NCBI GenBank assembly: GCA_045577755.1
Contig: JAZNJA010000057.1
Span: forward strand, 1,052-65,051
From: Eubacteriales bacterium
GTDB lineage: Bacteria > Bacillota > Clostridia > Oscillospirales > CAG-272
Length of the DNA: 64,000 bases
Reading direction: 5' to 3'
This document shows positions 37,234 to 37,568 of this stretch, piece after piece. Position 1 is the first letter of the stretch. Each line of letters starts with the position of its first letter. The notes below the pieces were generated by a model. It ran no database searches. It worked only from the letters and a program-made list of their open reading frames with translations, and had not been told where the DNA came from. The position numbers were made by a program, and so were the translations under genes.

Positions 37234-37568
37234 TTTTCCACATAGTTTTCCCACACCCTGTGGAAAATTTGTGTGGAAAAGCTGAAAACACTTGAAATAG
37301 CACCTTATGGGCTTAAAATATCTGCTAAAATACGGAAAATGTCCTCAAAATGTCATGTTTGACATGAAAAACAGGGGTTTGTCACCCCCTATGACACAGA
37401 ATGTCGCTCTTCGAAACCCACCGGGACGACATGGATCGCCCCAATGGGAAAAAAGTTTTCCACAGGCTGTGGAAAATATTGTGGAAAAAAACGCGGCGTA
37501 CACTGTGTCGCGTAGAAAAAAGCCTGTGAACACAAGCAAAATCCGATGTTTTCCACTCCTGTGGATAA
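37234..37568. promoter_or_regulatory. second DnaA-box cluster in the 686-bp non-coding gap between gyrB and mreC
   Basis: The boxes are 37234 TTTTCCACA, 37246 TTTTCCCACA (1-nt insertion), 37259 TGTGGAAAA, 37272 TGTGGAAAA, 37456 TTTTCCACA, 37468 TGTGGAAAA, 37480 TGTGGAAAA, 37549 TTTTCCACT and 37560 TGTGGATAA. Confidence 0.8.

Follow-up and report, generated by a model that had tools for sequence, protein, structure and literature searches.

Why would a chromosome carry a second dense cluster of DnaA boxes on the 3' side of gyrB, several genes away from the cluster beside dnaA? This question is raised by a 64,000-nucleotide stretch of the genome of a Eubacteriales bacterium, the whole of which is referred to here as the window. 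The original prediction, made from the letters of the window, had described such a cluster and offered three readings of it: the displaced second half of a split origin, a datA-like sink for DnaA, or a DnaA-controlled region 5' of mreCD-gyrA. The gene order on which it relied is confirmed by Pfam matches of the flanking genes. dnaA (30091-31542) is followed by dnaN, recF, remB and gyrB (35231-37198, + strand; Pfam DNA_gyraseB, Toprim and related domains), which forms the 5' flank of a 686-bp gap (37199-37884). On the other side lie mreC (37885-38766, +; Pfam MreC, E 7.5e-39), a gene for a weakly MreD-like membrane protein (mreD-like; 38763-39365, +), and gyrA (39429-42128, +). These three genes (37885-42128, +) probably constitute a single operon.

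The gap had been described as non-coding, and this description is correct. No Pfam match was obtained for the 156-aa open reading frame inside it. The related gaps match one another in all six frames, none of which is free of stops along its whole length, and in one relative not even a 60-aa open frame is present there. A coding gene in the gap is therefore ruled out, and the lack of a conserved frame in the relatives, where a normal gene would have spoken against a DnaA-box cluster, favors the finding. A known or structured RNA is ruled out as well: Rfam returned only chance miRNA matches, far below the gathering and E-value thresholds, and the RNAalifold consensus fold of the gap has a covariation term of -0.56, its predicted pairs falling mostly on invariant motif cores. 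A search of the gap for parS gave a single chance match with three mismatches, at 37356.

The most striking content of the gap is its DnaA boxes, defined here as sequences with at most one mismatch to TTWTCCACA. There are 12 of them, seven perfect, against 0.23 expected from the density of 0.34 per kb outside both clusters (Poisson P ~4e-17), and composition-matched shuffles of the gap contain 0.33 boxes on average and 4 at most. The original count of at least nine was thus conservative. Local enrichment was checked within the window: the 9-mer TGTGGAAAA/TTTTCCACA is present 13 times in the 64 kb (0.32 expected; none of 100 shuffles reaches 13), and 12 of the copies fall into two places, 31621-31866 and 37234-37488.

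The boxes follow a defined architecture, dominated by two anchor modules of predicted high affinity in which convergent and tandem boxes stand 3-4 bp apart. A weak box, TTTTCAACA (one mismatch; 37215..37223, +), lies 17 nt 3' of the gyrB stop codon. It is followed by Module A (37234..37280), kept in all close relatives, which comprises a perfect TTTTCCACA (37234-37242) and a one-mismatch TTTCCCACA (37247-37255), both pointing right, and two leftward copies of TGTGGAAAA (37259-37267 and 37272-37280). Module B, TTTTCCACA-GGC-TGTGGAAAA-TAT-TGTGGAAAA (37456..37488), shows the strongest conservation within the gap, being almost unchanged across 10 sequences, and has the same composition and orientation as a module in the dnaA-dnaN gap (31621-31653). 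Of the three copies originally claimed for this three-box module, these two stand as described; in the third (37246/7-37280), for which an inserted nucleotide had been supposed, the first box is read here as the one-mismatch TTTCCCACA, and an extra perfect box precedes it. Further towards mreC lie a convergent pair, TTTTCCACT-cc-TGTGGATAA (37549..37568), and a one-mismatch box, TGTTGAAAA (37603..37611, - strand), at which 8 of the 10 aligned sequences have CCTGTTGAAAA, locus L105 has CCTGTGGAGAAA and the window has GACTGTTGAAAA. The series ends in an mreC-proximal composite (37669..37715), made up of ACGACA at 37669, the degenerate box TTTCACACA at 37680-88, ACGACA at 37689, TGACA at 37701 and TTTTCGACA at 37707-15; its spacings of 20 and 11 bp are kept in relatives.

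Tandem 10-mers, ATTCG(C/T)AGAA (37748..37790, +), are found beyond this composite, within an insertion of ~150 bp confined to the nearest relatives, L097 and L099, and are outside the conserved cluster. A related heptamer, AATTCGT, forms two inverted arrays (35026-35057 and 35157-35188), each with 4-5 copies and 97% complementary, that flank ~100 bp 5' of gyrB. These arrays are kept in L101 and absent from L100, L103, L104 and L105; the 10-mer 5' of mreC is present in the window, L097 and L099 only. Both could be a common regulator site or a small repeat element placed before the two gyrase loci.

A second motif, YGACAW/WTGTCR, is interleaved with the boxes. It has 8-10 copies in the gap, against 1-2 expected, while the dnaA-dnaN gap is not enriched in it. 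The segment richest in the motif (37337..37435) has copies at 37351, 37360, 37380, 37392, 37402 and 37427 in the window. Its geometry is conserved and comprises an inverted pair, a set of three direct copies, which in relatives are spaced at exactly 11 bp, and a reverse copy before Module B. Three further reverse copies, ~20 and 11 bp apart, bracket a DnaA box 100-170 bp 5' of mreC. The pattern does not recur elsewhere within the window. The simpler gyrB gaps of distant relatives lack the motif, which therefore resembles a regulatory layer specific to this lineage, probably tied to mreC and outside the ancestral DnaA element; its phased, gap-specific sites are probably those of a putative second factor. 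Several candidates were considered for this role. Spo0A (0A box TGTCGAA) fits well at 37707-37715 only. SpoIIID, whose consensus is GGACAAG, fits only at the arms of the hairpin described below. A WalR/OmpR-type hexamer-N5-hexamer site and low-affinity DnaA sites phased at 11 bp are other candidates.

With respect to transcription, no conserved sigma-A promoter is found on the alignment of the gaps, consensus scans giving only non-conserved sigma-70-like matches, and a by-eye search of the gap for sporulation-sigma and ECF-type promoters gave no consistent result. No convincing terminator for gyrB is present in the gap either; there is only a weak, short hairpin 3' of Module B (GCCTGTG-AA-CACAAGC, 37522..37537), between an A tract and an A/T tract, and relatives have a hairpin of other sequence at the equivalent position. 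Given that both signals are lacking, read-through from gyrB, modulated by bound DnaA, is a live possibility.

To what extent is this arrangement conserved? Relatives were collected by a scan of reference genomes with GyrB and a scan of metagenomes with MreC, together with look-ups of MreC homologues. The closest reference relatives, MAGs of uncultured Clostridia, Oscillospiraceae and 'Candidatus Flemingiibacterium', have GyrB proteins at most 79% identical. The synteny comparison proposed with the original prediction shows that the architecture of the gap is kept in at least 12 related metagenomic contigs (MreC 65-99% identical), in which the gap is alignable and 510-690 bp long. Each homologous gap has 9-16 boxes (8-16 under a stricter clustering), and the blocks follow in the same order: Module A, the WTGTCR/YGACAW segment, Module B, more boxes, a CGACA-bracketed box and the ribosome-binding site of mreC. 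In an alignment of 10 sequences (MreC 65-77% identical), the invariant columns concentrate in the boxes; across relatives Module A reads TTTTCCACA-N3-TTTCCCACA-N3-TGTGGAAAA-N4-TGTGGAAAA, and Module B TTTTCCACA-GGN-TGTGGAAAA-N3-TGTGGAWAA. Judging from this pattern, the box sites are under selection, and the architecture is under purifying selection and not decaying. Five loci that span both regions (L100, L101, L103, L104 and L107; 12-21 kb) carry exactly two clusters each, one in the dnaA-dnaN gap and one at the gyrB 3' flank, with one three-box module per cluster in the same orientation. Both clusters are present in L105 too, the module of its gyrB gap ending in TGTGGAAAG, outside the strict pattern; L106 stops short of dnaA.

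In more distant relatives the element is simpler. Just 3' of gyrB there is a single three-box module with a few boxes (3-7 in these one-module forms), and the next gene is either mreC (L001 and L002, in which the module lies 45-60 bp 5' of the mreC start) or gyrA (L003, L010 and L013). In L004 an intact pfkB-like coding sequence (348 aa) follows gyrB and contains the module TATTCCACAgggTGTGGAAAAgtcTGTGTATAA (2835-2867), which encodes GSIPQGVEKSVYN in frame, as well as three further boxes at 3056-3075 and 3120; the homologue of this gene in L014 is free of boxes. In the GyrB tree all carriers but L010 fall into a single clade, in which L006 appears to have lost the element; L010 belongs to the sister group. 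In other lineages gyrB abuts gyrA or mreC, with gaps of 3-66 bp, and four loci (L015, L017, L018 and L060) lack both a gyrB cluster and boxes 5' of dnaA, while keeping the dnaA-dnaN cluster and its trios. The module starts 17-50 bp after the gyrB stop codon in the window and its closest relatives (L083, L085 and L086), and anything between 45 and 600 bp separates it from the following start codon. According to this distribution, a module 3' of gyrB, with mreC or gyrA following, was already present in the ancestor of a family-level clade of uncultured Oscillospirales-like bacteria, and the lineage of the window has expanded the element to 10-16 boxes. Since the module is kept despite a changing downstream gene, and even inside the coding sequence of L004, the DNA site at this position is old and maintained independently of any particular promoter.

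The next question is how the gyrB cluster relates to the site where replication begins. The primary cluster occupies the dnaA-dnaN gap (31550..32050), with 14 boxes at the same threshold, among them the three-box module 31621-31653 and a box at 31661-31669. The basal unwinding system has been defined as a DnaA box (up to two mismatches), a spacer of up to 16 bp, at least three trios of the form 3'-NAN-5' (3'-GAT-5' being preferred) and an unwinding region (PMC8287927). By these criteria an unwinding module is predicted at 32033..32116 (+ strand), consisting of the tandem boxes TTATCCACA and GTTTCCACA (32033-32050), the spacer TCCT, the DnaA-trio-like CTA CGC CTG CTA CTG CTG GTA (32055-32075), a pyrimidine-rich stretch and the clamp GCGCGTGCGAG. 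Homologous blocks are present in all relatives: every dnaA-dnaN gap of the clade ends in tandem boxes, a C-rich spacer, a TTACTGCTACCGCTACTGGT-type run, a pyrimidine- or AT-rich stretch and a CGCG clamp. The run is composed of CTA/CTG triplets, i.e., GAT/GAC on the opposite strand, and resembles the C. difficile trio CACCTACTACTATTACTACTATGA (PMC7561715). In a scan for this type of unwinding system (BUS-type), the dnaA-dnaN gap scores 7.5, which only 0.7% of shuffles reach, and the gyrB gap 2.5, which 78% reach. The combination of box and trios expected of a functional oriC (PMC8287927) is absent from the gyrB gap; no trio run beside a box is found there in the window or in eight of nine related gaps, L105 having one weak T-rich run. 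Situated rightward of the unwinding module at a distance of ~5.8 kb, the gyrB cluster is thus box-only and not an independent origin.

The origin may be placed at dnaA-dnaN by its box cluster, its trios, its adjacency to dnaA and a seven-site parS array 9 kb away. GC skew, among the guides proposed with the original prediction, is uninformative at the scale of the window, for it follows the coding strand: nearly all genes between 0 and 55 kb are on the + strand, with no strand switch at dnaA. In one relative, L019, dnaA and dnaN are only 40 bp apart, and the gap between recF and remB (8750-9683) holds 12 boxes together with tandem boxes, trios, an AT-rich stretch and a CGCG clamp, so the position of the origin within the dnaA-gyrB block appears not to be fixed in the group. 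No box cluster is found 5' of dnaA in the window or its relatives, only 0-2 boxes. What is conserved there (29786-30090; L100-L105) is a promoter-like block, TATTGATTTTT…TATGTTATAATA, a very AT-rich stretch and an alternating CGCGCGCG run, of the same type as the CG clamp that follows the predicted unwinding region between dnaA and dnaN. Relatives have, 60-80 bp further 5', a single box adjoining a CGACAT motif. The gene directly 5' of dnaA is a PFOR gene (+) in relatives and, in the window, encodes a 554-aa protein with no family match. The window's own DnaA keeps the RDHTTV recognition motif in domain IV (31180-31542), where the recognition helix reads RDHTTVMSS. The helix of E. coli and B. 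subtilis DnaA is RDHTTV(L/I)HA, and the change from His to Ser at a base-contacting position might be linked to the preference of the clade for TTTTCCACA over TTATCCACA.

Some features of the region to the left of dnaA deserve a record of their own. The genes mnmG, rsmG, parA, parB and serS (19547-29785) are on the + strand and point towards dnaA; in the usual Firmicute layout they point away from the origin. The parS array (22195-22447) lies between rsmG (21452-22180) and parA (22491-23312) and comprises five perfect copies of TGTTTCACGTGAAACA (22231, 22265, 22299, 22362 and 22432) and two with 1-2 mismatches (22195 and 22211), the expectation being ~0.8 matches at up to three mismatches. Seven parS sites in 250 bp directly 5' of parAB seem unusually dense for a chromosome. 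A permuted 'tmRNA*' of 651 nt called by ARAGORN at 23791-24441 (- strand) overlaps the coding regions of parB and serS and is almost certainly a false positive, Rfam having no tmRNA there. Two isolated perfect boxes, TGTGGAAAA at 25920-25928 and TGTGGATAA at 26187-26195, stand 267 bp apart in a 231-aa open reading frame with no Pfam match and could be due to chance or constitute a minor DnaA site. A TPP riboswitch (27758-27880, - strand; Rfam RF00059, 60.3 bits) precedes a minus-strand gene (27052-27696).

Among the explanations to be weighed for the gyrB cluster is a split origin. The cluster would serve as the far half, made of boxes only, of a bipartite oriC, in place of the oriC1 that is lacking 5' of dnaA; DnaA bound at both clusters would interact, looping out dnaN-recF-remB-gyrB (~5.8 kb), and this contact would be needed for efficient unwinding. 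As in the bipartite origins of B. subtilis, H. pylori and C. difficile (PMC7561715; PMC3479198), there are two clusters, only one of which has the DnaA-trio/DUE, and the box-only cluster of such origins equals or exceeds the unwinding one in size, likewise here. The two clusters of the window have 12 and 14 boxes, share the three-box module and its orientation, and are not accompanied by any cluster 5' of dnaA in the window or relatives; the mobile origin of L019 is also in keeping with this mechanism. The oriC1 of C. difficile and other clostridia comprises 9-19 boxes, and melting in vitro depends on it (PMC7561715). Since classical clostridia need a box-only oriC1 and this clade has no boxes in that place, there is room for the gyrB cluster in the part, and the existence of box-only halves in known bipartite origins is the reason to retain it. 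However, those origins are divided by dnaA alone, ~1.4 kb, whereas in this case the clusters are separated by four genes (5.2 kb), the second one is located downstream and not upstream, and some related genomes lack it. The unwinding module is confined to the dnaA-dnaN gap, the one-module forms have only 3-7 boxes, and the boxes of L004 are inside a coding sequence. Furthermore, since L015, L017, L018 and L060 have neither the gyrB cluster nor boxes 5' of dnaA, a single dnaA-dnaN origin suffices in the group and the gyrB cluster is not an obligatory half. With no unwinding module, and dispensable in relatives, the displaced half is the least supported of the three readings originally offered, and we consider it improbable. 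A bolder form, in which the clade lost the oriC1 5' of dnaA, the gyrB 3' cluster is its displaced equivalent, and a DnaA bridge, through the loop and the YGACAW factor, would couple origin firing to gyrase and mreCD expression, is similarly improbable.

A purely transcriptional operator, in which boxes and YGACAW sites would serve only the mreCD-gyrA promoter with no effect on initiation, has a sounder footing, although we still regard it as rather unlikely. The cluster is always upstream of a gyrA-containing operon, close to the mreC start in L001 and L002, and YGACAW is enriched in this gap only and brackets a box near mreC; precedents exist in the DnaA-regulated promoters of B. subtilis and in P. 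aeruginosa oriCII/gidA (PMC13438810). Nevertheless, 12-16 boxes over 450 bp are many more than an operator would require, it is the gyrB stop codon, and not the next start codon, to which the modules are anchored, the alignment has no conserved sigma-A promoter, and the L004 module lies within a coding sequence. That the cluster is a vestigial or second functional origin born of a duplication of oriC is suggested by the three-box module and the composite of box and CGACA common to both gaps, but it is very improbable: the likeness is limited to motifs, only the 33-nt module matching with no extended homology, the gap has neither DnaA-trios nor a DUE-like element, and its architecture appears to be kept by purifying selection. 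A dispersed repeat, or an artefact of chance or composition, has nothing in its favor except the A/T-rich character of the motif and can practically be dismissed, given that 12 of 13 perfect copies in 64 kb lie in the two gaps by dnaA and gyrB, that shuffles never come near this number, and that conservation across relatives is site by site.

On balance, we favor the reading of the gyrB-mreC gap as an accessory, oriC-proximal cluster like those of B. subtilis, which probably acts as a DnaA sink, as a means of DnaA-dependent control of transcription into mreCD-gyrA, or as both. Taken as sequence, it is a real, evolutionarily conserved cluster of predicted DnaA-binding sites: many consensus boxes (12) within 686 bp of intergenic DNA, conserved in the 10-sequence alignment, and distinct from the unwinding origin, its scan score being at the null level. 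In the proposed mechanism, DnaA would bind the anchor Modules A and B cooperatively and then spread to the weaker boxes, forming a large DnaA-DNA complex. Since the cluster is 5.8 kb from the unwinding site, it would be copied almost immediately after initiation, and the doubled local sink would damp re-initiation. The complex would also lie across the transcription route from gyrB to mreCD-gyrA, where it would probably act as a repressor or roadblock for the operon, and a second factor would probably bind the phased YGACAW sites. The remaining two of the original readings, the datA-like sink and the DnaA-controlled region 5' of mreCD-gyrA, are both consistent with such a box-only, conserved cluster near the origin.

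How does this cluster compare with known systems? DnaA-box clusters (DBCs) outside oriC were reportedly described in B. subtilis by Ishikawa in 2007. There are six of them, mostly origin-proximal, and the genes that they precede differ among Bacillus species; they control neighbors such as sda, ywlC and yydA, and together restrain initiation (Okumura 2012, PMC3245932). The gyrB cluster resembles them in being an intergenic, many-box cluster near oriC, with no unwinding element, adjoining possibly regulated genes and variable in location among species, and the role proposed for them, titration or inactivation of DnaA with local control of transcription, may by analogy be proposed for the gap too. 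Unlike them, it has a stereotyped convergent-plus-tandem module of three or four boxes in common with oriC, interleaved with 11-bp-phased YGACAW; moreover, none of the six sites is at the gyrB 3' flank, between gyrB and mreCD-gyrA. E. coli datA is a looser analogue, a high-affinity box cluster away from oriC whose own replication is presumed to reduce the potential for initiation. It has five boxes, needs IHF, promotes DnaA-ATP hydrolysis and lies ~470 kb from oriC, in contrast to the 12-16 boxes at 5.8 kb in the present case. Another parallel is the oriCII/gidA promoter region of P. aeruginosa, which belongs to another phylum and has other flanking genes; there, a second origin-like box cluster near the origin is reported to have proved a DnaA-regulated promoter region (PMC13438810). 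No precedent for a DnaA-box cluster between gyrB and gyrA was found in the literature, in line with the original statement that none was known at the gyrB 3' flank of the model Firmicutes; the location is therefore one not reported for them.

Understanding of DnaA-box clusters that lie away from the origin is limited to a few model species; the one at gyrB is large, strongly conserved and built on a module that it shares with oriC. Its hosts belong to a widespread group of uncultured gut and rumen Clostridia whose origin is unlike the textbook Firmicute layout: boxes 5' of dnaA are missing, the origin between dnaA and dnaN is enlarged, and one relative has its origin between recF and remB. For annotation, the locus carries a warning, since software that locates origins by counting boxes would report two of them at this locus. 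For biology, it offers a test case for how accessory DnaA sinks arise and move, for whether they may substitute for the box-only half of a bipartite origin, and for whether DnaA status is wired to the genes of gyrase and cell shape. The gyrB cluster is, in this sense, an entry point to the evolution of replication origins in uncultured Oscillospirales-like bacteria.
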